Part shown: one piece after another, positions 677-22,418 of the stretch
Layout: the number at the start of each line of letters is the position of its first letter
Position numbering within the stretch: position 1 is the first letter of the stretch
Assembly: GCA_964542895.1 (NCBI GenBank)
Contig: CAZIWT010000001.1
Coordinates: forward strand, 30,573-94,572
From: an uncultured Thermodesulfobacteriota bacterium
Lineage (GTDB): Bacteria; Desulfobacterota; Zymogenia; Zymogenales; Zymogenaceae
Direction of reading: 5' to 3'
Length of the DNA stretch: 64,000 nucleotides
Notes under the pieces: model-generated
Databases searched by the model: none
What the model was told of the DNA's origin: nothing
What the model saw: the letters and a program-made list of their open reading frames with translations, nothing else
Position numbers and translations under genes: made by a program

Positions 677-1837
677 CTATCTCCTGTCCTCCTTTCTCCT
701 GTTTCGCTTCTTCGAGCCGACCTCGAGGATCGTGATGAGGAGAAAGATCAAAAGGGTCTGAATCACGAGGACCAGCGCAACGATGAAATCGGCGTTTCTC
801 AAGGCGATGGTCGCCAGCCCGAAAACGGTGTTTATCGAAATGATAAAGACAACGGCGAGCTTCCTGTCCCCTATCTGGGCCGCGATCCTGTGGTGGATAT
901 GATCCCTCCCCACAAAGGAGAGGAGCTCCTTGAAGCTCTTTACCTGCTTCTTTGCAATCCGGGCGACATTCGTATAGATTATGTCGTATATTAGGACGCC
1001 GAAGATAATAAGGGGCGTGGAAAACGAGACGAGGGGATCGTTTTCAGACCACTCCCCCAGGACGGCCAGAGACGCCAGCACGAACCCCAGAAAGGAGCTT
1101 CCGGCGTCGCCCAAGAATATCCTCGCATTCTTTTTAGGGACAAAGTTGAAGGGGATAAAACCGAGCACACCGCCCAAAAGTGCGATCGAGAGCCATCCCA
1201 GGTCCGGCTGATCCGTCTGAAAGGCTATTATCCCCAAAAAGGACGTTATCACGACCGTAATTCCGCCGCAGAGCCCGTCCATGCCGTCGATGAAGTTCAT
1301 GGCGTTTGTTATCCCCACAATCCAGAAAAAGGTGAGGGCGAGATCCAACACGTGTCCTATGGGAGTCGGTGGAAAGAGCTTCAAGACCACCCCCGCCGAG
1401 ACAACCACCCCGAAGGCCGCCGCCTGCGCCAGGAGCCTGATCCACTCCTTGACCCCGAAGATATCCTCCATGATTCCTACGACAAAGATTATCAATGACG
1501 CCACCATAACCGAGAAGAGCGCCGGGCTTATGACGCCGTTTATAGCGAGGGAGACAATAAATGCAACCACAACGGGGACCCCTCCCAGAATCGGAGTTGC
1601 GTTATCGTGATCCTTTCTACCCTCCGGCACATCCATATAGTTTCGGCTCTTCGAGATTCTGATCGCGACCGGCATAAGAACGTATGAGGTCGACCCGGAA
1701 AAGAGCAGTATCCATATCCACCGCTCACCTACATCGACAAAAAACCTTAAAACCGGCGGAAGGATGAGAACAATAAAAGCCGCGAGGGATATATACCAAA
1801 AAATACCTATATCCCTATCTTTGTTTCCTGAGGTCAT
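677..1837 (-). CDS. polyprenyl-phosphate N-acetylhexosamine-1-phosphate transferase (GT4 family, WecA/MraY/WbpL-like); initiating transferase of the glycan locus
   Basis: Multi-TM 386-aa protein with the MraY/WecA motif NAMNFIDGMDGL and an Asp-rich cytoplasmic loop. Last gene of the minus-strand operon. Confidence 0.85.
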   Translation of the reverse strand: MTSGNKDRDIGIFWYISLAAFIVLILPPVLRFFVDVGERWIWILLFSGSTSYVLMPVAIRISKSRNYMDVPEGRKDHDNATPILGGVPVVVAFIVSLAINGVISPALFSVMVASLIIFVVGIMEDIFGVKEWIRLLAQAAAFGVVVSAGVVLKLFPPTPIGHVLDLALTFFWIVGITNAMNFIDGMDGLCGGITVVITSFLGIIAFQTDQPDLGWLSIALLGGVLGFIPFNFVPKKNARIFLGDAGSSFLGFVLASLAVLGEWSENDPLVSFSTPLIIFGVLIYDIIYTNVARIAKKQVKSFKELLSFVGRDHIHHRIAAQIGDRKLAVVFIISINTVFGLATIALRNADFIVALVLVIQTLLIFLLITILEVGSKKRNRRKEDRR

Positions 1838-1884
1838 ATATGCTTCACCATATATTATTTATAATATTTCAGCTCCTCTTTTAA

Positions 1885-3021
1885 TCATTTTAATCCGGCC
1901 GTAACATCTATCACGGCCGCCGCCACCCTCTCCACCTCACCGTCCGTCAGCGTCGGGTAGATGGGAATCGAGACGTCCTCCCCAAACGCCCTCTTCGTCC
2001 CCGGGAGCTCCCCGTCCCCTGTATATTGCCCCGTATATTGATATAGGGGCTTGAAGACGGGCCTCCTGGCGGCTATCCCCCTCTTCTCCAGCTTCTTGAT
2101 GACCACCTCGACCGCCCCCGCCGTCTTTACAATAAAGCGGTAATTGATATCATCCCCCGCCGGGGGCTCTTGGGGCATCGGTATCGAGGCCCTCTCGAAC
2201 TCCTTTCGGTAGTAGGCGGCTATCTCCCTCCTCCTCGATATAAAGGCATCGAGTTTTTCAAGCTGGCTTCTTCCCAGCGCCGCCTGGAACTCGGTCATCG
2301 CGTAGTTAAACCTCGTCCCACTCTCCTCCCTCTCGTCGTATATGATGAGGTCTCGAATCTCGTCCGTTATCTCCCCGTCTCCTGTGCAGACCATCCCCCC
2401 CCGGCCGGTGGTCATTACCTTTGTGGCGTAAAAGGAGAAGACCGAGACGTCGCCTAATGTTCCCAGGGGACGCCCCTTGAATGTGCCCCCCGTCGCCTGG
2501 GCGCAGTCCTCGACAACGGGAAGCCCCAGGGATTTAATCTCGTCCACAGGTGCCGACCTCCCGAAGGGGTGGACGGCGATAATAAACGTCCTCCCCCCCT
2601 TTTCCCCCCTCCCCCCCTTGATAGACTTAAGGGCATCGGCGAATTCTTTTTCGCCGGAAACCCCCGTGTCCGGGTCGACGTCGGCGAGTACCGGCAAAGC
2701 GTCCACGTATCTGACGGCGTTCAAAGGGGCCGCGCACAGATAAGCCGGTAGTATTACCCTGTCGTTTACCCCGACCCCCAGCGCAACAAGCGCCAGGTGG
2801 ATTGCCGCCGTTCCGGAATCGACCGAGACGGCGCCACCGGAGCGTATCCCCATCCTCTTTTCAAAGGCCCTCTCGAAGGCGGCCCTCTCATCCCCCACGG
2901 TCAACATCCCTGACCTGATCACCTCGGCCGCCCTTGAGGCATCTTGTTCGTCGATGGACGGGCGGGAGTGGGCAATGACCCCTTCTTTCTTTTTGCCCCC
3001 TTTTTCCGATTGAACGATCAT
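1885..3021 (-). CDS. DegT/DnrJ/EryC1/StrS-family PLP-dependent sugar aminotransferase
   Basis: 378 aa with the ...VFSFYATKVMTTGRGG... lysine region (SxxxxK PLP site) and DegT-like N-terminal fold motifs. Confidence 0.85.
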   Translation of the reverse strand: MIVQSEKGGKKKEGVIAHSRPSIDEQDASRAAEVIRSGMLTVGDERAAFERAFEKRMGIRSGGAVSVDSGTAAIHLALVALGVGVNDRVILPAYLCAAPLNAVRYVDALPVLADVDPDTGVSGEKEFADALKSIKGGRGEKGGRTFIIAVHPFGRSAPVDEIKSLGLPVVEDCAQATGGTFKGRPLGTLGDVSVFSFYATKVMTTGRGGMVCTGDGEITDEIRDLIIYDEREESGTRFNYAMTEFQAALGRSQLEKLDAFISRRREIAAYYRKEFERASIPMPQEPPAGDDINYRFIVKTAGAVEVVIKKLEKRGIAARRPVFKPLYQYTGQYTGDGELPGTKRAFGEDVSIPIYPTLTDGEVERVAAAVIDVTAGLK

Positions 3022-3034
3022 ACCGATGTTAAAT

Positions 3035-3655
3035 TTAGACGTTAATGGCCAGCCGCTGGGGCATGAAGGCCTCGGCGTATTTCATCTTCGCCTGTATCCC
3101 GCGAAAATTCGCCAGGGAGCGGGCGATCTCCACAATCGAGATCCCCTCCACGTTGGTCTTCATTATCTGGGACTTGTGGGCCATGAGCGCCTGCACCTTT
3201 ATGTCCATAAATTTTTCAATGTCCACGAAGACGGTCGGCGAGAAATTCTGAGTCGTGGGAACCTCATAATAGAGGACGTTCCTTATGTGCCTCGCGGAGG
3301 AATTCAACGCCAGGGCGAGCTCCCTGTGATCCTGATGGGTGTCCTCATGGTAGTTTACCAGTATCATATTCGGATCGACCTCCAAGATGACGTCCTCCAC
3401 CGCCCTTATCAGGTCCTTCTGCGATGGAAGGGCGGTGTCCTCGAATTCCCCCCAGAAGATCTTCTTGGCCAATACGGTCCGCTGGGCCTCCTTCTGCTCC
3501 TTCGCCCTCACCTTTCCTACGCCGCCCCTCTCCCCCTTCGTCAATATCATATAATATATAACCTGGCCCTTCCTCGCGTACTTCGCGAGGGTTCCGGCAC
3601 ACCCGAACTCAATGTCATCCGGATGCGCCCCCAGCGCCAGTATGTTCATGTTCAT
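3035..3655 (-). CDS. PIG-L/LmbE-family N-acetylglucosaminyl deacetylase
   Basis: N-terminal LALGAHPDDIEFGCAGTL motif (AHPDD zinc-binding signature) and the conserved HxDH region (HEDTHQDH). 206 aa. Confidence 0.85.
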   Translation of the reverse strand: MNMNILALGAHPDDIEFGCAGTLAKYARKGQVIYYMILTKGERGGVGKVRAKEQKEAQRTVLAKKIFWGEFEDTALPSQKDLIRAVEDVILEVDPNMILVNYHEDTHQDHRELALALNSSARHIRNVLYYEVPTTQNFSPTVFVDIEKFMDIKVQALMAHKSQIMKTNVEGISIVEIARSLANFRGIQAKMKYAEAFMPQRLAINV

Positions 3656-4335
3656 ATATTCCCCCGAATGTAATCAAGGCTCGATCCGCCCACGTTGAAC
3701 AGAAGGTCTACAACAGAAAGATACGGCACAAACTCCCCGAAGAGCTGGGGATATACAGGATGCTTGAAATCCTGAAAGACGACCTCTATTCCGGAGTCGG
3801 CGTAAACCGAGGTGTCCATATACTCCCTCCCCCCGGCACCTGCGAGGTATGTGTCCCCGCCGAGCTCCTTGACAATCCCAACGAGGCGCCCGTCCCTGTC
3901 TTCCAAAAAATCCCCCAGCTCCGAAGCTGTATAGAAGATAGTTTCGATCTTGAGGATCGAGGCGATAAGCCTCACCGTCTCCATGTTCAGGGACGACAGC
4001 CCCTCCCACGGTCTCGAGAGGAGCTCTTCGAAGGCCCCAAAATATTCGCCGAAAAATGGGGCCTTTCCGTAGCAGGAGGTCACGGCCGTGATATGCTTTT
4101 TCCGCCATTTGTCGGTGTTGTTGATCGCAACCTCGTTTATTCTCTGCCCGTGTCTTTGAAGGACCGGCACGGTAAGCCATTGGCCGCCGTTCGTCCCCTT
4201 TATCCTGTTCCTGTTTTGAAACTCGTTCTTCTTGAACTGCACCGTGTCGAGGAAGACAAAGGCGTCTGCCCTTTCTATCTTGTCGAAGTACCCGAGCCAG
4301 GGCAGATATTGCGGCTGGTGAATGGCGATTATCAT
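3652..4335 (-). CDS. WbqC-like family protein (polysaccharide biosynthesis accessory)
   Basis: N-terminus MIIAIHQPQYLPWLGYFDKI is the hallmark of the WbqC-like family. The stop/start overlaps the downstream gene by 4 nt. Confidence 0.75.
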   Translation of the reverse strand: MIIAIHQPQYLPWLGYFDKIERADAFVFLDTVQFKKNEFQNRNRIKGTNGGQWLTVPVLQRHGQRINEVAINNTDKWRKKHITAVTSCYGKAPFFGEYFGAFEELLSRPWEGLSSLNMETVRLIASILKIETIFYTASELGDFLEDRDGRLVGIVKELGGDTYLAGAGGREYMDTSVYADSGIEVVFQDFKHPVYPQLFGEFVPYLSVVDLLFNVGGSSLDYIRGNI

Positions 4336-4407
4336 TCGATCTCTCCGCCGATACCCCTGCCCCTTTCCCTACCTCTGTCATCTCCCGATTTTATCGATCT
4401 CAACGGA

Positions 4408-5592
4408 TTATCCCCCTTCCATCATCTCCCTGTAAAGGGCCTTGGTGTTTTTTACCGCGCTCTTGATGTCGAAGAGCGCCTCCGCCCTGACCCTCCCGGC
4501 CCTTCCCATCTTTTTTGCCATTCCCTTATCCCGAAGTACCTCGACACAACTTTTCGCCAGGTCAGCGGGGTTTGACGGGGAAACGAGTATCCCGGTCACT
4601 CCGTCGTCGACCACCTCGGCTATCCCCCCCACACGAGAGGCCACCACCGGAAGCGAGAGGGCCATCGCCTCCACTATACTCATCCCCAATCCCTCGTTGA
4701 GCGAGGGCATGACCATGAGGTCGCAGGCGGAAAGCAGCCGGGAAACGTCGTCGCGAAAGCCTAGAAACGTAAAATTTCCCCCGACCCCCAGCGCCCCTGC
4801 TTCCTCCATTAACTCCACCTTCAGCGGCCCCTCACCCACCATCAGGAAGCGAACCTTCTTAGGAGCCAGGCCGGAGATGATCTCTTTAGACGCCCTGACA
4901 ACGCTGTCGTAACCTTTTATCGGCACCATCCTCCCCACGCAGACAACCACGAGGTTATCGTCCCCGAATCCGAGATCATTGCGAACTCCCTTTCGGTCCG
5001 CCCCCTTCCCGAAGGCCTCAACGTCGATGCCGTTGTATACCGTCCTGTACTTGCCCTCGGTGCCTATGCCCCTCTCGAGAAACTCGCGCCTCCCCGCATC
5101 GGAGAGGGTCACGATCCTCTCACACCATCCGGCCGCGATCCTCTCCACAAACGTGTAAATTCCGGCCTCCCATCGGGGGAAGTAGCCGGTAAAGATGTTC
5201 CCGTGGGGGGAGTATATGAGCCTGCGGTGGCCGGCAAGCCTCCCCGCCAACCTTCCCAGAAAGCCCGCTTTCGATGTATGCGTATGTATAATATCATACC
5301 TGTTTTTCCTCATTAACGCAACCAGCGAGAGGAGGCTCAGAGCGTCCCTGACCGGGCTTACCTCCCTCGTAAACGTCCTGATCTCGTGAACTTCGATCCC
5401 GAGGTCCCTCCCGCAGCCCAAGAGGTCGCTCCCCGGAGGCCCCGCCGCCGCCGCAAGGGACTGGGTGAACTCCCGACCGTCAATTCCGTCAAGGAGCGAG
5501 AGCAGGGCCCTTGGCGCACCCCCCTCCTCCATCCGCGTGATTACGTGAAGGACCTTTATCCTTCCCCCACCTGCTCCACCTTTCTCCCCCAT
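4408..5592 (-). CDS. glycosyltransferase family 4 (GT-B, group 1)
   Basis: 394 aa. N-terminal KVLHVITRMEEGG and C-terminal ...MVMPSLNEGLGMSIVEAMA...VVASRVGG (E-X7-E type GT4 motif). Confidence 0.85.
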   Translation of the reverse strand: MGEKGGAGGGRIKVLHVITRMEEGGAPRALLSLLDGIDGREFTQSLAAAAGPPGSDLLGCGRDLGIEVHEIRTFTREVSPVRDALSLLSLVALMRKNRYDIIHTHTSKAGFLGRLAGRLAGHRRLIYSPHGNIFTGYFPRWEAGIYTFVERIAAGWCERIVTLSDAGRREFLERGIGTEGKYRTVYNGIDVEAFGKGADRKGVRNDLGFGDDNLVVVCVGRMVPIKGYDSVVRASKEIISGLAPKKVRFLMVGEGPLKVELMEEAGALGVGGNFTFLGFRDDVSRLLSACDLMVMPSLNEGLGMSIVEAMALSLPVVASRVGGIAEVVDDGVTGILVSPSNPADLAKSCVEVLRDKGMAKKMGRAGRVRAEALFDIKSAVKNTKALYREMMEGG

Positions 5593-5636
5593 TTAAGTCT
5601 GTTTCTCCAATCCTGCAAAAAATTAATTTACATCGG

Positions 5637-6797
5637 CTAAAACCGATACAGCTCCGTGCACCGATCGCACACGTCAAACCGTCCCCGCTCCTTTACGCGC
5701 CTCCTGAACCGCCTGTACAGGTAGTCGTTCCATATCTCGGCGAGGGGACGCTCCCTGATATTGCCGATCTTGACCCCCAGGGAAAGGCACGGCCGAACGG
5801 TGCCGTCAGGAAAGATGTAGGCGACCATCCAGGGGCTCTTGCATCTGCCCGAGTAGCTCTTCGGGGAAAAGGTGAAGTTCGTGTAGTAGGCCTCGATCTC
5901 GTCGTCGGTCAGGTTCGGGTAGACCGTCGCCCCCATCGACCTCGCCTCGGCGAGCTTTTCCCTGAGCCGCTTCGTATCTATGTCCGGTAGCCTGTCCAGG
6001 ACAAAGCCCGCCCAGTCGTGACTCTCGCAGCCGAAGTGCTCTCTCATCTCCCTGTTGTGGCTCTTCAGCCTCCCGCCGTCTATGAAGATCAGGTGATGAA
6101 AGGTTACCTCCCTGGCCCCGAGGGAGCGGGCGGTCTTCACGGTCCGAGGGATATCGAGGTAGTTGAAGTCGAAGATCGTGCTGTTTACGTTGAGAACGGG
6201 ACGGGTTGTCTTAAGTCGCCTCTTCTCTTCATCGAGGATCAAAAATCCCTCCTTCGCGTCATCGAAGACCCCCTTCCTCCCCCTCACCATGTCGTGCACA
6301 TCGGGCGGTCCGTCGAGGGAAAAAATGATCTCGTCCAGTTTTGCGCTGACGAGGTCTTTTGCGTATTTTTTAAGGAGCGTCCCGTTCGTGATGATGTTAA
6401 GCCGCATCCCGTTTCCCTTTATCCGCTCGACGACCTCGATAAGCCCCCCGTAGAGGAGCGGCTCCCCGCCGAAGAGGGTGATCGCCGGCGGAAAGGTGTA
6501 GGAGCGCTTGAGATGATCCACAAGCTTACCTACCTCTTTAACGTCAAGCTCCTCCCTCAAGATCTCGGGCGTATAAAACTTCGAGGAGCCGGTCTCCCCC
6601 CACTGGCCGCACATCTTGCAGCGGAGGTTGCATCTGTAGGTCAACAGGAGCGAGACCGTCTCCGGGGGAGCGCTCCTTCCCCTAAAAAGGAAATAGCTGA
6701 AGCCGGAGCGGGACCTCTGGATAAGGGCCTTCAGGGCGTAACCCGGAAATTCCCTCGCCTTTTTTAGCGCCCTTCCGATATTTCTTATAGGAATCAT
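5637..6797 (-). CDS. radical SAM enzyme with C-terminal Twitch/SPASM-type auxiliary cluster domain
   Basis: CNLRCKMCGQ (CX3CX2C) radical-SAM motif near the N-terminus. C-terminal CKSPWMVAYIFPDGTVRPC (CX12GX4C) followed by CDRC at the extreme C-terminus; this matches the Twitch/partial-SPASM cysteine pattern. Confidence 0.85.
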   Translation of the reverse strand: MIPIRNIGRALKKAREFPGYALKALIQRSRSGFSYFLFRGRSAPPETVSLLLTYRCNLRCKMCGQWGETGSSKFYTPEILREELDVKEVGKLVDHLKRSYTFPPAITLFGGEPLLYGGLIEVVERIKGNGMRLNIITNGTLLKKYAKDLVSAKLDEIIFSLDGPPDVHDMVRGRKGVFDDAKEGFLILDEEKRRLKTTRPVLNVNSTIFDFNYLDIPRTVKTARSLGAREVTFHHLIFIDGGRLKSHNREMREHFGCESHDWAGFVLDRLPDIDTKRLREKLAEARSMGATVYPNLTDDEIEAYYTNFTFSPKSYSGRCKSPWMVAYIFPDGTVRPCLSLGVKIGNIRERPLAEIWNDYLYRRFRRRVKERGRFDVCDRCTELYRF

Positions 6798-6991
6798 TTC
6801 ACCTCTTGTTTCTTTTCTTTGAGGTAATCCTCCCGGTCGACATCGTGGGGGTAGTAGTAGTCCGGCTCTCTCACGTTGGAGAGCTTCTCGGCTATAAGGG
6901 GTATCAGGAGCCCTAAAATAACCGCAACGAGAAGGATTGCGAGATAGAACCTCTTTCTCATCTTTGCTTTCTTACCTTTGGATATCAACAT
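6794..6991 (-). CDS. 65-aa membrane-anchored microprotein, Tyr-rich acidic C-terminus (unannotated family)
   Basis: MLISKGKKAKMRKRFYLAILLVAVILGLLIPLIAEKLSNVREPDYYYPHDVDREDYLKEKKQEVK has one predicted TM helix. The start is 5 nt after the upstream DegT stop and the stop overlaps the radical-SAM start by 4 nt, so it is translationally coupled on both sides. Confidence 0.5.
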   Translation of the reverse strand: MLISKGKKAKMRKRFYLAILLVAVILGLLIPLIAEKLSNVREPDYYYPHDVDREDYLKEKKQEVK

Positions 6992-6996
6992 GGCTT

Positions 6997-8184
6997 TTAA
7001 GAAAATATCTTCCTAAAGGTTTCCAATATTGTCTCCAAATCCCGGCCCGTTACTCCCGGATGAACCGGCAGCACCATAAGGCGCTCGGACAGCCTCGTCG
7101 CCTCGGGAAAGGGATCGGTGGTGTCGGGATACCCGAGGTGGTATATTTTGTGAATCGGCCGTTCGTACATGCGGGCGGTGTCTATCCCCCTTTCTAAGAG
7201 GAGCCGGGCGATGTGCTCAATCCTCTCCCCCTCCTCTATCATAACGGGTAGGTGATTGTAGGAGGGGGACGCCCCGTCTATGATTGCGGGAAGAGTTACC
7301 CCCTCGATCTCCTTTAAGGCGTTGTAAAGGGTTTTTCCGTTTTCGATCCTCCTCCCGATCTGATCGCCGATCGCCTCGATCTGGATATTCCCGAGCCTCG
7401 CGGCAAAGGGAGTCGCAAGAGTCGGCTCGAAGTGCTCGTGAACCTCGGTGGACTTGAAGGGCTCGATCAGCCTGAAGAGGGGGCCGTATACCGTTGGACT
7501 GGTGGCGTAGTTCATCAGAAATAGCGCTGCAAAGAGGACGGTGTTGAAAAGAACGCCGGGGGTCGGCATAGACTCGATCTCCCTCTCGATCTCCCGCGCG
7601 ATATCAGGGTCGCTTGCCGTTATGACCCCCCCCCTGAAGGTCGAGATGATCTTCCCCTTGCACATGGAGAAAAACCCAACGCCGCTCCCCCCACCCACCC
7701 TCTTTCCCGACATCTCGGCCCCGGGAGCCTGGGCGCAGTCCTCGATTACGCAAAAACCCTCCCTCCCGGCCCGCCTCAATACTTCCGAGAGATCCATCGG
7801 GAACCCGAACATGTGAACAGGCAGAACGGCAAGGGTGTCGGTCGATGTCGCTTCACCAAGGCGCTTCGTGTCGAGGTTGAAGGTGTTTATATCTATGTCG
7901 GAAAGCCTCGTCGTAAGCCCCGCCCTCTCTATGGCCAACGTCAGTGTGGGGACGGTGTACGCCGGGAGGACGACCTCCCTCCCTCGATGGAGTTTTTTCA
8001 GCGCCTTCAAGATAATGAAGAGGGCGGAGGTCCCCGATCCCACGAGAAAGGCCCGCTTTACCCCGATGTAGTCGGCGAAGGCCTCCTCGAAGGCGGAAAT
8101 ATCTTTTTCCCCTCCAAGAGAGAGCGCCGAGCGGAGTAGCCCCCACTGGCCCGTGTAAAAGGAGTTTGTAGGTACCCTTCTCAT
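6997..8184 (-). CDS. DegT/DnrJ/EryC1/StrS-family PLP-dependent aminotransferase (second copy)
   Basis: 395 aa with ...FFSMCKGKIISTFRGG... lysine region and DegT-type N-terminus. Overlaps the methyltransferase gene by 4 nt. Confidence 0.85.
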   Translation of the reverse strand: MRRVPTNSFYTGQWGLLRSALSLGGEKDISAFEEAFADYIGVKRAFLVGSGTSALFIILKALKKLHRGREVVLPAYTVPTLTLAIERAGLTTRLSDIDINTFNLDTKRLGEATSTDTLAVLPVHMFGFPMDLSEVLRRAGREGFCVIEDCAQAPGAEMSGKRVGGGSGVGFFSMCKGKIISTFRGGVITASDPDIAREIEREIESMPTPGVLFNTVLFAALFLMNYATSPTVYGPLFRLIEPFKSTEVHEHFEPTLATPFAARLGNIQIEAIGDQIGRRIENGKTLYNALKEIEGVTLPAIIDGASPSYNHLPVMIEEGERIEHIARLLLERGIDTARMYERPIHKIYHLGYPDTTDPFPEATRLSERLMVLPVHPGVTGRDLETILETFRKIFS

Positions 8185-8825: not shown

Positions 8826-8910
8826 GTCCCCTCGAAGTCTCAGAAATATCTTTGAAATTAGGCTTAAGATATCGGCCCCCTGAAAGCGGACGTCAAATTG
8901 AATCGTATAT

Positions 8911-8931
8911 CAAACAAACCAAACAAACAAA
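8911..8931. repeat. imperfect tetranucleotide repeat (CAAA)n / (TTTG)n, ~5 units, 3 nt downstream of the GT2 stop codon
   Basis: The plus strand reads caaacaaaccaaacaaacaaa. It lies in the 108-nt spacer between the GT2 and methyltransferase genes. Confidence 0.6.
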
Positions 8932-8933
8932 TT

Positions 8934-9890: not shown

Positions 9891-9951
9891 CGCCTTGTAA
9901 AATTTTCAAAAACCCGCTGCCTGAAAAAACCGGCCTTTTTCCGGCTCTAAA

Positions 9952-11139: not shown

Positions 11140-11181
11140 AAATCTAAATACATTTATATATAGTCCGTAAGAACCAAAGCA

Positions 11182-14812: not shown

Positions 14813-14887
14813 CGAAATACCTCAAAAAAAGTGTGGAAATTTCAGCCCCTTGCCATCGATTGAATTTCAATAGGGAGCCCTTTACTG

Positions 14888-16090
14888 TCAGGACCGGGGA
14901 GACACCCCCTCGATAACCTCCGCGATCTTCCCGTACGTGGTTTCGTACGAGCATTTTTTAACCACCGCCTCCCTCGCCGCCCGGCCGAGCCTCTCCCTCA
15001 GGACACGATCCCTGATCGCCGATTCAAGCTTTTGGGCCAGGTCTTCGGGATTTTTCGGCTCAAAGGTAATCCCGTTCTCCTTGCTCCCGCCGCTTCCGCC
15101 AGAGGTGATCATCTCCGGTATCCCGGTGATCTCCGGCACCACGACGGTAAGTCCCACCGCCATCGCCTCCAGCATCGAGACGGGAAGCCCCTCCGAAACG
15201 CTCGAAAGGACGAATATATCGGAGACCCTGAGCCGATCCCGAAGCCGCCTTCCGTAAAGGCTCCCCGTGAACGTGACGAATCTTTCAAGACCGAGCTTTT
15301 CAACCATTCTTTGAAGATTTCCCCTCTCGGCGCCGTCCCCCACAACGGTCAAATGAAATTTGAGCTTCTTTTTTTTAAGAAGGCCCGTAGCCTTAAGCAG
15401 ATAGGGGTACCCCTTTACGGGATGCAACCTCCCCACGCTGATAATCTCGACGATTTCCCCCTTATCCCTTCCCACCCCAAGGGGGGAGAAGAGTTCCGTG
15501 TCCACGCTGTACGGTATTATCCTGACCCTATCCCCGGCTACATCCCCCCCTATCTCCACGATCTTTTTCTTATTGTATTCGGTCGGCGTTATAACGCTTT
15601 TTGCGTCCCTCAAGAGCTCGGCGGAGTCGCGGGGGGAAAGGAGGAGGAGATCGGAACCGTGGGCCGTAAAGGTGTAGGGGATGTCGATGAGTATCGAGGC
15701 GATCCTGGCCCTCGTTGCCGAGATGGACAACATGTGGGCGTGGATACGGCTTACACCGATGCCCTTCAGGACGAGCGCCGCCTCCAATGATTTTAATACA
15801 AATTTTATCCCGTACAGCCTCCTATACTCCAAAAAAAAATTCAGGACGGCCTTCGGCTTGATGATAAGGAATTTCAGAAGGGCGACGGCCCAGCGGGGAT
15901 ACAGAAGGGAGAACCGCCCGTAGTTGCAATCGTCCCCCTCCGCAATGGAGTCCGGGATATCCGACGTCTCTATATCCCATACGGGAAAGATGTAGACCTC
16001 GTTGCCCCTCTTTCTCAGAAACTCGATCTCCTTGTAAATAAATGTGGTTGATTTTTCCGGAAGGCTTTTTAGGAAATAAGCGATTTTCAC
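14888..16090 (-). CDS. glycosyltransferase family 4
   Basis: 400 aa; ...IFVLSSVSEGLPVSMLEAMAVGLTVVVPEITGIPE... Confidence 0.8.
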   Translation of the reverse strand: MKIAYFLKSLPEKSTTFIYKEIEFLRKRGNEVYIFPVWDIETSDIPDSIAEGDDCNYGRFSLLYPRWAVALLKFLIIKPKAVLNFFLEYRRLYGIKFVLKSLEAALVLKGIGVSRIHAHMLSISATRARIASILIDIPYTFTAHGSDLLLLSPRDSAELLRDAKSVITPTEYNKKKIVEIGGDVAGDRVRIIPYSVDTELFSPLGVGRDKGEIVEIISVGRLHPVKGYPYLLKATGLLKKKKLKFHLTVVGDGAERGNLQRMVEKLGLERFVTFTGSLYGRRLRDRLRVSDIFVLSSVSEGLPVSMLEAMAVGLTVVVPEITGIPEMITSGGSGGSKENGITFEPKNPEDLAQKLESAIRDRVLRERLGRAAREAVVKKCSYETTYGKIAEVIEGVSPRS

Positions 16091-17490
16091 TGTCCATCCC
16101 CGACCGTAATCTCCATTGTTGACTTCTCTATCTTTGACAGCAGGAAAATCGTCGCCATAAAAAACCAGAACGGCTCCATGATCCTTACAATAATGAAAGT
16201 CGCCGCACCTATAGAATGGGCGAGGAGGGCCAGCGTCGCCAGGAGCATCCCGAATGACAACCCCTTGAGAAGCCTGTCCCGGGCCTCCTTAAAGGTGGAG
16301 TAGAGAAAGACTATTATCCTGTAGATCAGGTAAAAAAAGGCGGCAATCCCCAAAAAGCCGGTCTCCGCCAGGACCCTGAAATACATGCTGTCTATTAACC
16401 CAATCCCCGTGACACCCCAGCCCAAGAGCGGTTTTTCAGACCATTTCGACAAGGCATGTCTGAAGGAGGTGATCCTGGCCGACGTAGAAGGATCCAGGTC
16501 TTTGCCCAGAAGGGTCTCGGTGCCCTCATAACCGGGATAAGGCACGAAGGTCTCGGTCACCCTCCCCTTGACCCTTTCCGGGAGCATAAAGGGCGAAAGC
16601 ACCAGAAGGATCAACAGAAGAGCGGCAAGGATGAGCTTCTTTTTTGAAAAGAAAAACATGGTTATAAACATCGGAATCACGGCGATATACGAGCTGCGTG
16701 ACAGGGTAAAGACAAAAGGGATCGAGAGCAGCGCGATTACACCGATGAGATACCTCTTGATCTTCCTGTCCTCAAGAGTCATTAAAAGCCCCGCCGAGAC
16801 GGAGATGATCAAAATCAGGTATCCCCCGAGGGTGTTCGGCTCTCCCGATGTCCCCTCGAACGGGGCGCTTACCCTTACCCCCTGGGGGATCTGGATAATC
16901 GCGTAAAGGGCGGTAAATATCGCGACAATAAAAGCCACGACGACGAAACGCTTGATTTGGCTCCTGTCCTCCAAATTGCTGACAAAAAGAAAGAAGACGA
17001 GGAAGTACTCCATATACTTAAATACATAAAGGAGACCCGACAGGAGGCTTACCTCTCCAACAAGCGATCCCCAGAGGGTTGATAATAGGGTGGCGGAAAT
17101 GTAGATCAGTATCGCGTTGTTAAGGGGGGTCCTAACGATAAGCCCGAGGCCCTTGTATATGGTGGTTTTCAGCACCCAGGACAAAAATACTATGACTATT
17201 ACCACATCCTCGATCCTGATTACGAGGCTTCGCTCCTCCTCCAGCCCGCCTCCGAGGGAAAACTCCGGCGAAAAGAGCATCGCGAAGATTATCAAGTAGA
17301 GGGCCATCTCCGTGTTGAAAAAGCATATCGCCGAAGAGATAACCCCGAGCAACAGGATCATCATCTTGAGCTCCACCCCCCCGGACAGAAAAAGGGCGAG
17401 AAGGGCGATGAATAAAATCATAACCCCGAACAATAAAATTGTGGGGGTGTTTAAATTTTCTGTAGACTCGTCTATTTTGGGCGCCTTCAT
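16087..17490 (-). CDS. O-antigen ligase / Wzy-like polysaccharide polymerase (polytopic membrane protein)
   Basis: 467 aa with ~10-12 hydrophobic helices and a large periplasmic loop. Embedded between glycosyltransferases and the Wzc-like gene. Confidence 0.7.
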   Translation of the reverse strand: MKAPKIDESTENLNTPTILLFGVMILFIALLALFLSGGVELKMMILLLGVISSAICFFNTEMALYLIIFAMLFSPEFSLGGGLEEERSLVIRIEDVVIVIVFLSWVLKTTIYKGLGLIVRTPLNNAILIYISATLLSTLWGSLVGEVSLLSGLLYVFKYMEYFLVFFLFVSNLEDRSQIKRFVVVAFIVAIFTALYAIIQIPQGVRVSAPFEGTSGEPNTLGGYLILIISVSAGLLMTLEDRKIKRYLIGVIALLSIPFVFTLSRSSYIAVIPMFITMFFFSKKKLILAALLLILLVLSPFMLPERVKGRVTETFVPYPGYEGTETLLGKDLDPSTSARITSFRHALSKWSEKPLLGWGVTGIGLIDSMYFRVLAETGFLGIAAFFYLIYRIIVFLYSTFKEARDRLLKGLSFGMLLATLALLAHSIGAATFIIVRIMEPFWFFMATIFLLSKIEKSTMEITVGDGQ

Positions 17491-17532
17491 GACAGGACCT
17501 ACATGAGAGAGGGGTTTTTCAGGGGAGCTTTC

Positions 17533-19806
17533 TTATTTCGATTTTCTCTTAAAGAGATTTGCGACTCCATCTTTGGCGGAGGTTAAAACACGCATCATGT
17601 TTTCCTTTGTAAACATCTCCTTCAGCTCCGTAGGGTCTCCGGGTTTGGAGCTTACTTTGTCTTCACTGTAGTAATACTGGTAATGATATTCGTAATAATC
17701 CGGGCCGTATTCCGGTCTTACGCCGTTTAAAATCACCCCCATGACGTTCGCCTTGACCGCCTCCAGGTGCAATTTAGACCGCTTGAGAACGCCCCTTGCG
17801 ATCTTACCCACTTCGTACAGCAAGAAAACTCCTTCGAGCTTTTGGCTCAATAGGACCGCATCCGTAACAGGCAACACCGGCGTGGTGTCGAAAATCACAA
17901 AGTCGTAGTTTTCCTTTATCTCTTCTATGAACTTGGACATCTGTTGGGAATTAATAAGTTCCGACGGATTGATGGGAAAGGTCCCGGAAGTTATGATGTT
18001 GAAATTCGATAACTCCGGGGTCTTTATCAAGACATCCATATCGATACTGCCGAGCATTATATCGTTAATATCCCTTTTTACCTCCCTCCAGTCCCTGTTG
18101 GAAAGGATAATGTCCGACAGCCCCGGTGACTTATCTATACCGAATATCTTGCCGATGGTGCCCCGACGCATATCCGCCTCGACCAAAAGAGTGCGGTAAC
18201 CCCCCTGGGCAAGGGTAACGGCGATATTGACGCAGTTTATCGTTTTCCCTTCTTGGAGCGAGGAGCTTGTAACCATAAACGTCTTTGTTCCCTTTTCCTT
18301 ATTTATGAAGAGGATGTTGGTGCGAAGACTCCTGTACGCCTCCACAACCTGGGATTTAGGGTTCATAAAAAATACAAGGGGAGTCTCCAAAATCCCCTCT
18401 TTTTCTTTTACCTCCTCTTCTTCCGGAACGCCCTTAATCGATGCCACATAGGGAATGACTCCGAGGACGGGGATCTCCAGATAGCTCTCCACGTCCTCAA
18501 TGGTACCGATGGAGGTGTCCATGTTTTCTCTTACAATCGCGAAGAAGATCCCGAGAAACAATCCTATAAAAAGGCCCATAAAAAACGAGGAGGCGATCTT
18601 CGGCGGATTTACCCTTTTATTGTTGCTGAGGGCCGGAGTCACCTCCGACACCTCGACGATCTTCCCGGATTCCTGTATTAGAATCTCCTGGTATTTTGAA
18701 TTCAGCTCTGAAAAGAGACTGCTCTGAAGCTCCACCTCTCTCTGGAGCCTGACGAGGATCAAGCTGTCGTTCGGATACTCCGATGTCTTCTCCTTATACT
18801 TCTCGATATCCCCCTTCAGAATATCCATATCCTTCTTGTTGAGATCTATCCTCGAGTTTACATCCGAACGGATTGAGCCCCTCAATTTCGAGATCTTACT
18901 GTTAATATCCTTTATTTTTGGATGACGATCGGTATATGTGGTAAGGTATTTATCCCGCTCTATCAACAGTTCCTGAAGCTCCAGGTTATATCTGTTCAGG
19001 GTGCTGTCCCTGTTCACCTCTCTAAGCTGAAACATGTTGTTGCTTGATAGACCCCTCAAAGTGAGATTTCTCTTAAAATAGAGCAATGTCTGGTTTTCGC
19101 GATTAAGGGCCTCGTATTTCCTCTCCAGCTCATCGAGGACCTTCAAATCGAGCATGGCCTGGCTGTCCAATGAGACAATGTCCTTTTTGTTTTGAAACTC
19201 CTTCAGCTCATCCTCGGCCTTCTTCAATCTGCTCGAAAGCTCTTTCAACTGTTTCTCGATGAATTCCTTCGTCTTGATGGTTCGCTCGTTTTTTAACTTG
19301 ATATTATACTCTTTGTAGCTTTTTGCCAGCGCATTTGCAATATTGGCGGCCATATCCGGATCGTCGTATATTACAGTAATTTTAATAATATTAGTGTTTT
19401 CCTCCGGCTCTGTCGTTACCGCCGCCTCGATCATCGAGATCTTGGTCATATACTCCTTGGAGTGAAGGATCGTGTCATTCTCCTGCTCCTCGCTCATCTC
19501 TCCAATATCTATAAGCCCAACTTCCTTTGCGGCCTCCTTTAATACCGGGAAACTGGTGATGACCTTGGTCTGGGACCTGATATTGCTGTAGGGCGAGAAG
19601 TAGAAGCTGCTGGGCATCATCCCGGCGAGAGACTGAATGCTGTCGTACTTGACCTTTGCCACCGCCTTGTACTTGGGGGAAGGCGATTGAATCAAGGCAA
19701 ACAAGAAGCTCAGAACCGAAAGAGTAATGGTTGAAAAAATAATGATGTTCTTGCGCTTTCTTACTATCCTGATCAGGTCCTTCAGCTGTATCTCATATTG
19801 AGCCAT
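17533..19806 (-). CDS. polysaccharide co-polymerase / bacterial tyrosine autokinase (Wzz domain + CpsD/Wzc-like ATPase, Tyr-rich tail)
   Basis: 757 aa. N-terminal TM plus coiled-coil chain-length-determinant region. Walker A SSSLQEGKT. C-terminal tyrosine cluster YGPDYYEYHYQYYYSED. Confidence 0.85.
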   Translation of the reverse strand: MAQYEIQLKDLIRIVRKRKNIIIFSTITLSVLSFLFALIQSPSPKYKAVAKVKYDSIQSLAGMMPSSFYFSPYSNIRSQTKVITSFPVLKEAAKEVGLIDIGEMSEEQENDTILHSKEYMTKISMIEAAVTTEPEENTNIIKITVIYDDPDMAANIANALAKSYKEYNIKLKNERTIKTKEFIEKQLKELSSRLKKAEDELKEFQNKKDIVSLDSQAMLDLKVLDELERKYEALNRENQTLLYFKRNLTLRGLSSNNMFQLREVNRDSTLNRYNLELQELLIERDKYLTTYTDRHPKIKDINSKISKLRGSIRSDVNSRIDLNKKDMDILKGDIEKYKEKTSEYPNDSLILVRLQREVELQSSLFSELNSKYQEILIQESGKIVEVSEVTPALSNNKRVNPPKIASSFFMGLFIGLFLGIFFAIVRENMDTSIGTIEDVESYLEIPVLGVIPYVASIKGVPEEEEVKEKEGILETPLVFFMNPKSQVVEAYRSLRTNILFINKEKGTKTFMVTSSSLQEGKTINCVNIAVTLAQGGYRTLLVEADMRRGTIGKIFGIDKSPGLSDIILSNRDWREVKRDINDIMLGSIDMDVLIKTPELSNFNIITSGTFPINPSELINSQQMSKFIEEIKENYDFVIFDTTPVLPVTDAVLLSQKLEGVFLLYEVGKIARGVLKRSKLHLEAVKANVMGVILNGVRPEYGPDYYEYHYQYYYSEDKVSSKPGDPTELKEMFTKENMMRVLTSAKDGVANLFKRKSK

Positions 19807-19829
19807 AAATAATTCCTTTTCTACTTACT

Positions 19830-20549
19830 TCAAGGAAATACAACTTGTGTTGGAAACATGATAAATTCAAGGATGGGCATAAGCTGTTTTGCGAAATAGT
19901 TGACATTTGCGATCGTGGTGGAAGGCAGAAAGATGATATCACCACCCTTGAGGTAAATATTCTGAGTCAGGTCGCCTTTTTTCATCATCCTGCCCACGTT
20001 CGCAACAACCACATCCGGATTTTTGTTGTACCCTCTGATTATCAAGACATTTCTAAGTTTTGCGTCCTTCGTCGGCCCGCCCGCGGAGGCAAGTATTGCG
20101 GCAAGCGTCAGGCCGTTCTCAAACGTGTATGCCCCCGGTTTATGTGCCTCCCCAAAGACGTATACAACTTCCCTTATCTTTACGTTTAGTATCGGAGAAA
20201 CATAATACTCCGACAATACTTCGACGAGGTGCTTATCCAACTCCTTGTTTGTCATTCCCAATACTTTTATTTCTTCAAAGAATATGAAGCTGATCGTTCC
20301 GGCCTTTGAAACCTGAACTTTATACTCTTTTAACTCCCCCTCTTCCCAGAGGTTGATATCGATAAAATCCCCGGGCTGAACCCTGTGTTCGTAGCGACTC
20401 GCCTCCGTCGGTAGTGAGTGAACGGACCCGGCGCGCATGCTCCCACTCGGCGTACACGATACGACGGCAAAAAAAACGAGAAGTGCCGAAGAACAGACCA
20501 ATCCGTATCTATGAAATATTTTGGCGTATCTTTTATTAAATGACTTCAT
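19830..20549 (-). CDS. polysaccharide export protein (Wza-like; Poly_export + SLBB domain), lipoprotein
   Basis: 239 aa with a lipobox (VVSC) and a PGD...I motif followed by an SLBB-like C-terminal region. Confidence 0.75.
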   Translation of the reverse strand: MKSFNKRYAKIFHRYGLVCSSALLVFFAVVSCTPSGSMRAGSVHSLPTEASRYEHRVQPGDFIDINLWEEGELKEYKVQVSKAGTISFIFFEEIKVLGMTNKELDKHLVEVLSEYYVSPILNVKIREVVYVFGEAHKPGAYTFENGLTLAAILASAGGPTKDAKLRNVLIIRGYNKNPDVVVANVGRMMKKGDLTQNIYLKGGDIIFLPSTTIANVNYFAKQLMPILEFIMFPTQVVFP

Positions 20550-20556
20550 TTTTTAT

Positions 20557-21621
20557 CTATTCACCTTCCAACTGTTTTTCGTCGACAGGCTCCACGATAT
20601 GTATGAGATGGGCCTCAATAAGGTTTACGATCTTCGGGGTTTTGAGCTTTTTCCCGTCGCTGTCGTAAAGTATCTGGACAACCTGCCTAAAATGAGTCTC
20701 CCCCGTTCCCGCGATTACCCTTCCCACCTCTTGGCTGTTGAGTTTTACATAGCTGCCTACGGGGAAAAGGGTAACCTCCTCAAGCAGCGCCTTTACTACC
20801 TCGCCATCGAATTTACTTCTCATATTATCTACGATATCTTTGATAACGTAGAGGGGGAGTACCCTCTTCCTGAAAGGTCTGTCCTGGGTCATCGCCTCGT
20901 AAGTGTCCGCGAGGCCTATGATCTTTGCGTGTTGATGGATATCCTTTCCGTTCAATCCCCCGGGATAGCCGGAACCATCCTCCCTCTCATGCTCCTGAAG
21001 GGCGATCAACGAGAGGTGTTGGTATCCGTCTCCGAACTTCTTGAGAAACTCGCTCCCCTTTTCCGGGTGGGACTCTATCTCTCTTACCTCGCTCCTCAAG
21101 AGATCCTTCTCCTTGTTCAAAATATCTTCCGGAATTAAACCCATCCCCACATCGTGGGTAAGTCCGGCAAAGGCAAGCTCGTTAAGCTCCGCCCCGCTTA
21201 TAGAAAGCCTTCTGCCGATCTTAACCGCGATGATGGTCGTCCAGAGGGAATTGTACGAGAGGTTGGTGTAATCATAGACGTTATACATCTGGGACATGAA
21301 GATATTCTGGTATTTATCAATGGAGTTTGCCAATCTCTTGGCATGGAGGCTCAGTGGAATAATATCGAATTTTTCCCCTCTCCGAATCGAAGAAAACATA
21401 TTGTTAAGAAGCCCTTTAAGCTCCGACAATATCAGTAGGGCCTCTTTCTTTTCAACCTCTGTCGGAGCCCGTAAATAGGGTGAAATCTTCTCACCCAAGA
21501 GATCATCAGTCGTGAGAATATCGCTGATTACAACGCTCTTTTTCTGATCACTGTCTCCACCCTTTTGCTTCTTATCTTCAAAAATATCCTGGCCCCTTAT
21601 GATATCAGATATTTTTACCAA
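20557..21621 (-). CDS. HD-GYP domain c-di-GMP phosphodiesterase
   Basis: LTHDVGM (HD) and HEREDGSGYPGGL (GYP) motifs; 354 aa. Confidence 0.8.
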   Translation of the reverse strand: MVKISDIIRGQDIFEDKKQKGGDSDQKKSVVISDILTTDDLLGEKISPYLRAPTEVEKKEALLILSELKGLLNNMFSSIRRGEKFDIIPLSLHAKRLANSIDKYQNIFMSQMYNVYDYTNLSYNSLWTTIIAVKIGRRLSISGAELNELAFAGLTHDVGMGLIPEDILNKEKDLLRSEVREIESHPEKGSEFLKKFGDGYQHLSLIALQEHEREDGSGYPGGLNGKDIHQHAKIIGLADTYEAMTQDRPFRKRVLPLYVIKDIVDNMRSKFDGEVVKALLEEVTLFPVGSYVKLNSQEVGRVIAGTGETHFRQVVQILYDSDGKKLKTPKIVNLIEAHLIHIVEPVDEKQLEGE

Positions 21622-22418
21622 TTTTTATTCTCACTTAAAAGGTTGCTGATAATTGACGAATCCACATATTTACTCTTCTTGTTCCATCCTACAAGGAGAC
21701 CCATGTCGCAGATGTTGTTTATCTTTCTCGGCGTACCGCTGGAGTACTCGAAGATATTCTCCATGGCCTCGATAGTAAATACGTTCCGGTTGAGACCCGC
21801 CCTCCTCAGACGAAACTCGACATACTTTACCATCTCCTCGTAAGAGAGATTCTGAAGGTGATACTTTATCGCCACCCGCTGCTCGAACTGGGGTATCGAA
21901 TCTACAATCTCCTTCAATTCCGGTTGTCCGATGAGTATCAGTGTCAAGAGGAAGCGGTCGTTAAGCTGGAAGTTCAGAAGGAGTCTCAGCTCCTCAAATG
22001 TGTCCTTATCCTGTATAAGCTGGGCCTCATCGATGATAATCACCGATTCTTTGTCATCGGAGACGTTCTTGTAAAGTATGCGGTTCAGATGGTGAAGCTG
22101 GCTTGTCTTCCTCTGATTGAGATTCTCTCCGGTAAATTGATATATAATCTCCTGTACGAAGAGGAGGGGAGTCAATTTAGGATTTTCAAGGAGTGCAACT
22201 TCAAAATTCTCCCTCGGGAGACGCTGAATGAGGGTCCTGGAAAGGGTCGTCTTGCCGCTTCCGATCTCCCCGGTGAGCATTACACAACCCTTCCTTCGAG
22301 ATATGCCGTAGAGCATCCTCGATAGGGCCTCTTTATGCTGCGGGGATTCATAAAGAAAAGTCGGATCGGGAACATTCTCGAACGGCGCGTCTATCAATCC
22401 CCAGTATGCCTTATACAT
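21615..22418 (-). CDS. ExeA/GspA-like AAA ATPase of the PEP-CTERM-locus/polysaccharide-secretion subfamily
   Basis: 267 aa. Walker A GEIGSGKTTL and Walker B IIIDEAQ. Position as first gene of a Wza/Wzc/Wzy EPS operon. Confidence 0.7.
   Translation of the reverse strand: MYKAYWGLIDAPFENVPDPTFLYESPQHKEALSRMLYGISRRKGCVMLTGEIGSGKTTLSRTLIQRLPRENFEVALLENPKLTPLLFVQEIIYQFTGENLNQRKTSQLHHLNRILYKNVSDDKESVIIIDEAQLIQDKDTFEELRLLLNFQLNDRFLLTLILIGQPELKEIVDSIPQFEQRVAIKYHLQNLSYEEMVKYVEFRLRRAGLNRNVFTIEAMENIFEYSSGTPRKINNICDMGLLVGWNKKSKYVDSSIISNLLSENKNW

Follow-up and report, generated by a model that had tools for sequence, protein, structure and literature searches.

Direct control of secretion machines by cyclic di-GMP (c-di-GMP) is established for synthase-dependent polymers, namely cellulose, Pel, alginate and PNAG. 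What is understood of the control of Wzx/Wzy-type pathways mainly concerns transcription. Here, we describe a minus-strand array of polysaccharide genes that runs without a break from position 22418 to position 677 of a 64 000 nt stretch (the window) of contig CAZIWT010000001.1, from an uncultured bacterium of the Zymogenaceae (Desulfobacterota), and that opens with the genes for an ExeA-like AAA+ ATPase and an HD-GYP-fold protein. These two genes form a pair that is found together in at least nine phyla, usually adjoining Wza/Wzc genes. The exopolysaccharide (EPS) locus is of an ordinary, Wzx/Wzy type, and its novelty lies in the ATPase–HD-GYP head module. We regard as evenly balanced the chances that the pair, conserved and translationally coupled, is a module controlling the export machine by a mechanism that we infer.

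The closest described systems each share a part of this architecture. The Wza–Wzb–Wzc systems of the Escherichia coli group 1 capsule and colanic acid, and of the Myxococcus xanthus EPS, BPS and MASC polysaccharides (PMC9603273, PMC9601211), likewise have an initiating transferase, many glycosyltransferases (GTs), a Wzy_C protein, a polysaccharide co-polymerase (PCP) of the PCP-2a type with Walker A, A′ and B motifs plus a tyrosine cluster, and an outer-membrane polysaccharide export (OPX) protein of approximately 240 aa with Poly_export and SLBB domains. The window differs from them in having no Wzx, Wzb or Wzp-type barrel in approximately 74 kb, and in carrying at its head the ATPase–HD-GYP pair, which is absent from the E. 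coli and M. xanthus model systems. Loci of the XrtA/PEP-CTERM type (Haft et al. 2006, PMC1569441; plasmid pDV1) likewise place an ExeA-like P-loop ATPase in an OPX/PCP locus, together with a short export protein, an O-antigen-ligase-like protein and GT4 enzymes, and their sigma-54 activator has a counterpart in relatives of the window. In XrtA loci, however, the PCP and kinase are split and a TIGR03016 outer-membrane protein follows the ATPase, whereas in the window PCP and kinase are fused and the HD-GYP gene takes that place; exosortase, PEP-CTERM, TIGR03016, TIGR03013, XrtA-type deacetylase and FemAB genes are not in the window. The GspA/ExeA–GspB/ExeB proteins of type II secretion have the same AAA_22 module, Walker A motif and DEAQ box and are 37–38 % identical to the window ATPase, but are about 500–570 aa long with a transmembrane (TM) segment, a peptidoglycan-binding domain and a GspB partner, in contrast to a soluble 267 aa protein with an HD-GYP partner and OPX/PCP neighbours. 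Lastly, plasmid-borne EPS loci of Roseobacteraceae (Palleronia) likewise have a short ExeA-like ATPase adjoining PCP/BY-kinase (bacterial tyrosine kinase) genes, although that ATPase belongs to another clade (31 % identity, grouping with the XrtA type), HD-GYP is lacking and a VPLPA-CTERM exosortase-type sorting signal is present.

To assess the conservation of the pair, one genome per species was searched with a profile of the aligned ATPase clade, and at least 591 stretches were confirmed as encoding a relative. The best 80 loci, which are the closest relatives (ATPase identity 48–74 %), were analysed, their open reading frames (ORFs) being found with a crude ORF picker and labelled by phmmer with the window proteins. 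An HD-GYP gene was the next gene on the same strand in 58 of the 80 loci and was present anywhere in the locus in 70, against a background of 2.1 % HD-GYP-like ORFs at a distance of three or more genes. The spacers between the two genes mostly lay between −26 and +17 nt, and the ORFs overlapped by 7 nt in the window, 32 nt in locus L014 and 53 nt in locus L015. The carriers came from the Desulfobacterota including Syntrophales (27 loci), Planctomycetota (Brocadiaceae and Scalindua, 12), Omnitrophota (9), Rokubacteria/Methylomirabilota (9), Nitrospirota (8), Nitrospinota (5), Latescibacterota (5), Fidelibacterota (1) and Gemmatimonadota (1).

Gene order around the pair changes while the pair itself stays intact: it precedes Wza, Wzc and Wzy in some loci, lies between Wza and Wzc in Rokubacteria, stands between Wza–Wzc and Wzy in Omnitrophota, and is followed by an ABC-2 transporter in Nitrospirota. 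Where at least 7 kb was available on each side (24 loci), HD-GYP was found in 22, Wza/Wzc in 16 and some polysaccharide gene in 21. Two tandem-HD-GYP homologues chosen by sequence alone also proved to lie directly after a 265 aa AAA_22 ATPase, with Wza/Wzc near. In 14 loci the gene directly preceding that of the ATPase encodes a low-molecular-weight tyrosine phosphatase (Wzb-like), which may link the pair to the Wzc circuit. A full-text search of the published literature for HD-GYP in combination with ExeA, PEP-CTERM, Wza/Wzc or AAA ATPase found no description of the pair, and the preprint on ‘Candidatus Zymogenia’ does not discuss EPS.

The ATPase gene (21615–22418, minus strand; Pfam AAA_22, E = 1.6e-25) encodes a protein with Walker A (GEIGSGKTT) and Walker B (IIIDEAQ) motifs and with neither a TM segment nor a peptidoglycan-binding domain. 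An earlier, sequence-only reading of the window had recognized an ExeA-like ATPase at the operon head, which our analysis bears out, and had assigned it to the PEP-CTERM-locus type, an assignment that did not survive comparison with controls. The model TIGR03015 was the sole NCBIfam match of the ATPase and no competing GspA model was returned for any of the proteins concerned, so control proteins were scored. The window ATPase reached 233 bits, and six relatives 218–251 bits, against a cut-off of 324.5; this is below the Aeromonas ExeA-like protein (571 aa, 270.9 bits) and the Ideonella GspA (548 aa, with an annotated GspB adjoining, 282.6 bits), and compares with 259.4 bits for a Roseobacter EPS-locus ATPase and 427.7 bits for the XrtA ATPase of Desulfovibrio vulgaris pDV1. 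The clade is 37–38 % identical to GspA/ExeA versus 32 % to the pDV1 XrtA ATPase. In a neighbour-joining tree the window clade was monophyletic on a long stem, apart from both the XrtA plus Roseobacter group and the ExeA plus GspA group. The sequence-only reading had named grouping with GspA as the outcome that would count against it; the ATPase does fall outside the PEP-CTERM type, but it falls outside the GspA type as well, being a 267 aa protein with AAA-type Pfam domains only, no TM segment and an HD-GYP gene next to it. By sequence comparison, it represents a third subfamily, neither XrtA/PEP-CTERM-type nor GspA-type. Among solved structures, only distant AAA+ proteins (TnsC, ORC and dynein) match the ATPase family. 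Labels of such ATPases as PEP-CTERM-associated or GspA on the strength of a TIGR03015 best hit are thus unreliable, and neither partner of the pair is covered by a curated family.

Two records used in these comparisons deserve mention. On a Palleronia plasmid (L101, 6983–10933) the gene for a short ExeA-like ATPase directly precedes those for Wzz and a CpsD/CapB kinase and neighbours one for a VPLPA-CTERM protein; short ExeA-like ATPases seem to accompany PCP/OPX loci generally, in a role that awaits explanation. The Aeromonas caviae record NZ_AP026896.1 (L100), filed as ‘plasmid pKAM479_3’ with 18 annotated features, is 4.9 Mb long and is evidently a chromosome.

It is highly improbable that the locus is an XrtA-type PEP-CTERM/exosortase EPS system with its exosortase and substrates encoded at other genomic sites. 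Such a system would account for the best, sub-threshold NCBIfam matches of the array being XrtA models (TIGR03015, TIGR03027, TIGR03088 and TIGR03097), and for the upstream sigma-54 activator of close relatives, which recalls PrsR in XrtA loci. However, all matches to XrtA models are far under their cut-offs, and the ATPase is both lower-scoring than GspA/ExeA on TIGR03015 and less similar to the XrtA protein than to GspA/ExeA. Neither the 64 kb window nor the 10 kb beyond it holds an exosortase, PEP-CTERM, TIGR03016, TIGR03006 or TIGR03013 gene, and the FemAB gene of the canonical XrtA locus is absent here too. Ten clusters of membrane proteins, sampled from the surroundings of the 80 related loci, included no exosortase, although the scan did not extend to a few singleton membrane ORFs; the clusters matched ABC-2 permeases, Rce1-like proteins, PMT_2, ComEC, AcrB and similar families. 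A regular-expression scan for PEP-CTERM tails in stop-to-stop ORFs of the window and related loci gave only spurious antisense matches.

The second gene (20557–21621, minus strand, 354 aa) starts with a TTG codon that overlaps the ATPase stop by 7 nt, and its product begins MVKISDII, in agreement with the family consensus MxRxSDII. It encodes a true HD-GYP-fold protein, as had been proposed: Pfam HD_5 (E = 1.6e-26; 93.5 bits versus a cut-off of 27.2) and HD both match, a GSGYP motif lies at residues 216–220 (GYP at 218–220), and an AlphaFold2 model (pLDDT 84.9) retrieved DvhD, PA4781, PmGH and Bd1817 as top Foldseek matches with a probability of 1.00. The model predicts a disordered stretch (residues 1–47), two long helices, the HD-GYP core (120–281) and a five-strand C-terminal barrel (290–345), which in fold searches appears SH3/Tudor-like, a fold commonly used for protein docking. 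The characterized proteins RpfG, PmGH (4MCW), PA4781 (4R8Z), DvhD (9RBZ) and Bd1817 (3TM8) have the same fold, GYP loop and most metal ligands, and Bd1817 further resembles the window protein in its helical extension at the N-terminus and in having active-site residues that are not canonical. The window protein differs from characterized HD-GYPs in lacking a REC, PAS or GAF input domain, in carrying N124 and E210, and in its additional SH3/Tudor-like barrel. We did not find an AAA+ ATPase described as a genomic partner for any characterized HD-GYP protein, and no NCBIfam model exists for this one.

Alignment to PmGH and to 58 pair-associated homologues (59 members with the window protein) showed that the window protein retains H156–D157, H185, H211, E212, D239 and GYP. 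The full PmGH-type set of metal ligands (first His, HD, His, HHE and Asp) is incomplete in it: N124 replaces the first His, which is present in 47 of the 59 members, and E210 replaces the first His of HHE, a position at which 34 members have Glu. Residues that hardly vary across the family are GYP, E212, R213, H185 and D239; variation is seen at the ligand positions H124, H156, H210 and H211, with the HD histidine lost in 18 members and H211 changed to Gln in 11. This pattern fits a protein that would bind a nucleotide and dock on a partner, and whose rate of catalysis many lineages can dispense with.

These residues bear on a rival account of the gene, in which the HD-GYP protein, co-expressed with the EPS genes, degrades c-di-GMP as an active phosphodiesterase and lowers its cellular level as negative feedback on the matrix, with the ATPase as an unrelated export accessory. 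The sequence-only reading had favoured such a feedback enzyme; with two metal ligands replaced, its activity is uncertain, and we consider this account unlikely. The fold, the intact GYP loop and the retained ligands speak for it, as does the proven activity of the nearest solved relatives by sequence (V-cGAP3, PmGH and PA4781). Against it stand the substitutions N124 and E210, the loss in the family of the HD histidine and the second HHE histidine next to an invariant GYP, and the scarcity of a local diguanylate cyclase, GGDEF motifs having been found in only 2 of the 80 loci and in no real ORF of the window. Moreover, strict, coupled pairing with one ATPase clade over nine phyla would be unexpected of an enzyme that controls the cellular pool, and argues instead for a partner-specific role. 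The best sequence match among solved structures, the cGAMP-specific V-cGAP3 (E = 2.7e-17), raises a further alternative, that the protein acts on another nucleotide, such as 3′3′-cGAMP or pGpG, and that the signal is not c-di-GMP. This is very unlikely, as the V-cGAP3 match is limited to the shared HD-GYP core and Foldseek places the c-di-GMP-bound DvhD, PA4781 and PmGH first.

The sequence-only reading had described the export set as Wzx/Wzy-independent-looking, whereas a Wzy_C protein, a PCP-2a with BY-kinase, an OPX protein and a WecA-type enzyme are hallmarks of Wzx/Wzy-dependent synthesis, and with the initiating transferase (PF00953), PF04932, PCP-2a and OPX all encoded, family assignment makes this a Wzx/Wzy-type EPS locus. 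The Wzc-type protein (17533–19806, minus strand, 757 aa; Pfam Wzz, GNVR and AAA_31) is a PCP-2a with a fused BY-kinase of the Wzc type: its two TM segments lie near residues 19 and 402, and it has Walker A (SSSLQEGKT), A′ (LLVEADMRR) and B (VIFDTTP) motifs and a C-terminal tyrosine cluster (YGPDYYEYHYQYYY), and scores 165.9 bits on TIGR01007, above the cut-off of 108. The Wza-like OPX lipoprotein (19830–20549, minus strand, 239 aa; lipobox AVVSC) has Poly_export and one SLBB domain; Poly_export, SLBB and SLBB_2 are its sole Pfam matches at E ≤ 0.001, with no Wza_C or GfcC, and its best NCBIfam matches are pepcterm_export (86 bits, cut-off 180) and EpsY (55 bits). Class 3 OPX proteins are defined as Poly_export–SLBB(n) without Wza_C or GfcC and have a median length of 256 aa (Saidi et al., PMC9603273), an HHpred-level check for a cryptic Wza_C helix being part of how OPX classes were defined (PMC9603273); by Pfam architecture the window protein is Class-3-like. 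The Wzy_C-family membrane protein (16087–17490, minus strand; Pfam Wzy_C, E = 1.5e-11) has approximately 13 TM segments and scores 41 bits on TIGR03097 against a cut-off of 188, and may be a polymerase or ligase-like.

As the sequence-only reading had noted, the array contains neither a Wzx flippase nor an ABC transporter; the rest of the 64 kb window has none either, and none was found in the 10 kb beyond the window start on a same-species contig (L001). A MOP flippase lies inside the locus in the three closest non-congeneric relatives (L014, L016 and L017; ATPase 71–74 % identical). Because the gene is absent from approximately 74 kb here yet present in the locus in these relatives, a flippase supplied in trans is the simplest inference. 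A Wzb phosphatase was not found in the locus or the surrounding 74 kb or so, and the array and 64 kb window hold no candidate for a Wzp-type/PgaA-like 18-strand β-barrel porin; approximately 29 % of myxobacterial Class 3 OPX genes have no nearby barrel (PMC9603273).

In some lineages the pair keeps other company. A cassette recurs beside it that comprises NTP_transf_5 (PF14907), PqqD and one or two radical-SAM/SPASM genes, sometimes with ScmC/HprK-like P-loop proteins and small ORFs (L014 at 16718–21062, L016, L017, L038, L056, L096, L097 and others), and resembles a RiPP-type system for peptide maturation that is linked to EPS export loci. In the window itself, a radical-SAM/SPASM gene stands in the middle of the glycan genes, and a 65 aa single-TM ORF overlaps its start by 4 nt (together 5637–6991); the enzyme may modify either a sugar or a peptide. 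The pair could thus belong primarily to a peptide-modification system (radical-SAM/SPASM, PqqD, NTP_transf_5 and HprK-like kinase) that often sits beside EPS genes and of which the window retains a remnant, the radical-SAM/SPASM gene and the 65 aa ORF. Such a radical-SAM gene lies by the pair in 26 of the 80 loci and in 7–8 of the 24 well-flanked ones, PqqD and NTP_transf_5 recur, as do HprK-like and PqqD-like clusters, and L014 has a ScmC-type cassette. Even so, we think this origin distinctly unlikely. Wza/Wzc genes are twice as frequent, at 16 of the 24 well-flanked loci; neither the window nor the ‘Candidatus Zymogenus’ loci contain PqqD or NTP_transf_5; the radical-SAM subfamily of the window differs from the L014 type, and phmmer labelled it in one other locus only; and the 65 aa ORF resembles a small membrane protein, not a precursor peptide.

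We return to the pair as a control module on the export machine, for which the following sequence of events can be proposed. A WecA-type enzyme would start a lipid-linked repeat unit, to be built by seven GTs together with amino-sugar, methyl and radical-SAM tailoring enzymes, turned over by a flippase encoded elsewhere, and polymerized by the Wzy-like protein; the Wzc BY-kinase co-polymerase and the short OPX lipoprotein would then export the polymer. The HD-GYP protein would be a sensor of c-di-GMP or some related cyclic dinucleotide, which it may also hydrolyse slowly, and would set the activity of the ExeA-like AAA+ ATPase by direct contact; the ATPase would in turn control the assembly or gating of the Wzc/OPX complex. 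ExeA assists secretin assembly, which offers an analogy for this last role. The pair would then be a local switch of the ‘trigger’ type, a concept developed for phosphodiesterases (PMC5052742), and not a drain on the cellular c-di-GMP pool. A cyclic-dinucleotide-sensing HD-GYP protein modulating an AAA+ ATPase that acts on Wzc/OPX is a tentative proposal, to which we assign at best an even chance.

Several observations weigh against giving the pair this role. In 22 of the 80 loci the two genes are not immediately adjacent, and some lineages have the pair by ABC-2 transporters or radical-SAM/PqqD cassettes and not by Wza/Wzc. The 80 loci are not phylogenetically independent, and their gene labels share the crudeness of the ORF picking and phmmer comparison behind them. 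Contact between the partners, nucleotide binding by the HD-GYP protein and action of the ATPase on Wzc/OPX are predictions of the model. Finally, metals can also be bound by Glu and Asn, and an ordinary, active phosphodiesterase may therefore be what the window encodes.

Upstream of the ATPase gene is a 244 nt spacer of 25 % GC (22419–22662), which contains a sigma-70-like promoter candidate (TTGATA-17-TATATT, 22597..22625, minus strand) with 10 of 12 consensus positions. The promoter block is nearly identical in ‘Candidatus Zymogenus saltonus’ (L012), in contrast to the mid-part of the spacer, which has diverged. In L014 (6421–8602), L015 (6403–8592) and L017, a gene for a sigma-54 enhancer-binding protein (REC/PAS–AAA–HTH) lies approximately 600 nt upstream of the ATPase, these being relatives with 71–74 % ATPase identity; in the window, the spacer 22419–22662 gave no match to a sigma-54 promoter. 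At the same place the window and ‘Candidatus Zymogenus’ have a nucleosidase gene and the sigma-70-like promoter, which implies regulatory rewiring of the same cassette. With Rfam, neither the gathering nor a permissive threshold revealed a riboswitch there, for c-di-GMP or otherwise, and the leader had no stable fold (z-score −0.4). Assemblies repeatedly break within this spacer: of six same-species contigs with an identical ATPase (L006–L011), five start 100–250 nt upstream of the gene, which may reflect strain variation or low coverage of an AT-rich stretch. Within the array, promoter- and terminator-like matches were no commoner than in shuffled sequence; one transcript for the whole array is plausible. 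Two 10/12 promoter-like matches do fall in true spacers, at 9864–9835 before the GT2 gene and at 4436–4407 before WbqC.

The gene set was derived from Pfam and NCBIfam scans together with gene calls on same-species metagenome contigs (L001–L011). The ATPase, HD-GYP, Wza-like, Wzc and Wzy-like calls of the sequence-only reading were all confirmed, its six GT4, one GT2, methyltransferase and amino-sugar enzymes were all recovered, and the gene content supports a large EPS locus for a decorated heteropolysaccharide. Its count of 21 genes becomes 20 ORFs, 19 large ones and the 65 aa ORF, and its description of the genes as nearly all overlapping at stop and start was overstated: overlaps of 4–7 nt occur at 7 of the 19 junctions, and the other 12 have spacers of 5–124 nt. 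It had also missed the radical-SAM/SPASM, WbqC-family and WecA/MraY-family genes.

All genes after Wzy_C are on the minus strand as well. The conserved head cassette closes with a first GT4 gene (14888–16090; Pfam), followed by GT4 genes at 13538–14812 (start possibly at 14773, from Pfam and gene calls in L006 and L012), 12369–13541, 11182–12372 and 9952–11139 (the last three from Pfam/NCBIfam), and by the GT2 gene (8934–9890), the start of which is probably at 9827, as same-species contigs have calls of 296–297 aa. Next come a SAM-dependent methyltransferase (8181–8825; Pfam Methyltransf_11), a first DegT-family PLP aminotransferase (6997–8184; Pfam DegT, E = 4.7e-58), the 65 aa single-TM ORF (6794–6991; called on four same-species contigs, with no family match) and the radical-SAM/SPASM enzyme (5637–6797; Pfam Radical_SAM and SPASM, all NCBIfam matches sub-threshold). 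An apparent 199 nt gap at 6797–6997, with a terminator-like hairpin, was discarded, since the conserved 65 aa ORF occupies it. The array ends with a sixth GT4 (4408–5592; stp2/BshA-like at sub-threshold level, TIGR03088 201 bits versus a cut-off of 409), a WbqC-family protein (3652–4335; PF08889 on the gene call in L001–L004), a PIG-L family de-N-acetylase (3035–3655; Pfam PIG-L, BshB1-like at 117 bits versus a cut-off of 182), a second DegT-family aminotransferase (1885–3021; Pfam DegT, PseC/LegC-like at sub-threshold level) and the WecA/MraY-family polyprenyl-phosphate HexNAc-1-P transferase, the putative initiating enzyme (677–1837; PF00953, E = 8.4e-37), with 11 TM segments and 112 bits on TIGR02380 against a cut-off of 326. 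An ORF at 3674–4381, without a family, was rejected as spurious in favour of the overlapping WbqC ORF, on the evidence of the contig gene calls. On the same strand downstream of WecA are DUF4911 and AMMECR1 genes, apparently unrelated; convergent housekeeping genes come next, and the array therefore ends there. Elsewhere the 64 kb window carries housekeeping genes (Lgt, pyruvate kinase, TIM and others).

The nearest named relative, ‘Candidatus Zymogenus saltonus’ (Desulfobacterota, class ‘Candidatus Zymogenia’), has an ATPase 92 % and an HD-GYP protein 87 % identical to those of the window, and the same synteny, flanks included. The head cassette ATPase–HD-GYP–OPX–Wzc–Wzy–GT4 is conserved in L012, L014, L016 and L017, with a variable glycan block after it. 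Base composition changes along the array, between 16087–22418 and 677–16090: the ATPase, HD-GYP, OPX and Wzc genes have 46–47 % GC (GC3 53–63 %), and the GT and tailoring block 52–60 % GC (GC3 69–79 %). This step roughly coincides with the boundary between head cassette and glycan block, and suggests modular assembly of the locus. The block from the sixth GT4 through WbqC, PIG-L and DegT to WecA is found immediately upstream of the ATPase–HD-GYP genes in four other loci (L041, L065, L067 and L075, of Omnitrophota, Fidelibacterota and Desulfobacterales), approximately 6–10 kb upstream of the ATPase. Closing the array in the window and preceding the pair elsewhere, these genes co-travel in circularly permuted order.

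Overall, the wider reading of our data is that the pair constitutes an undescribed, phylum-spanning effector module that couples a cyclic-dinucleotide signal directly and post-translationally to OPX/PCP secretion, with the HD-GYP protein as a sensor or trigger enzyme docking on the ATPase through its SH3-like domain, and that it serves Wzx/Wzy-type and, in some lineages, ABC-2-type machines. We offer this as possible, if doubtful. Among the carriers of the pair are Nitrospirota, anammox Planctomycetota, Omnitrophota, Rokubacteria and syntrophic Desulfobacterota; these are environmental groups that are commonly reported to form aggregates or biofilms. If the reading is true, an HD-GYP/AAA+ pair tied to Wza/Wzc genes would give the Wzx/Wzy pathway a concrete candidate for control at the level of the machine.

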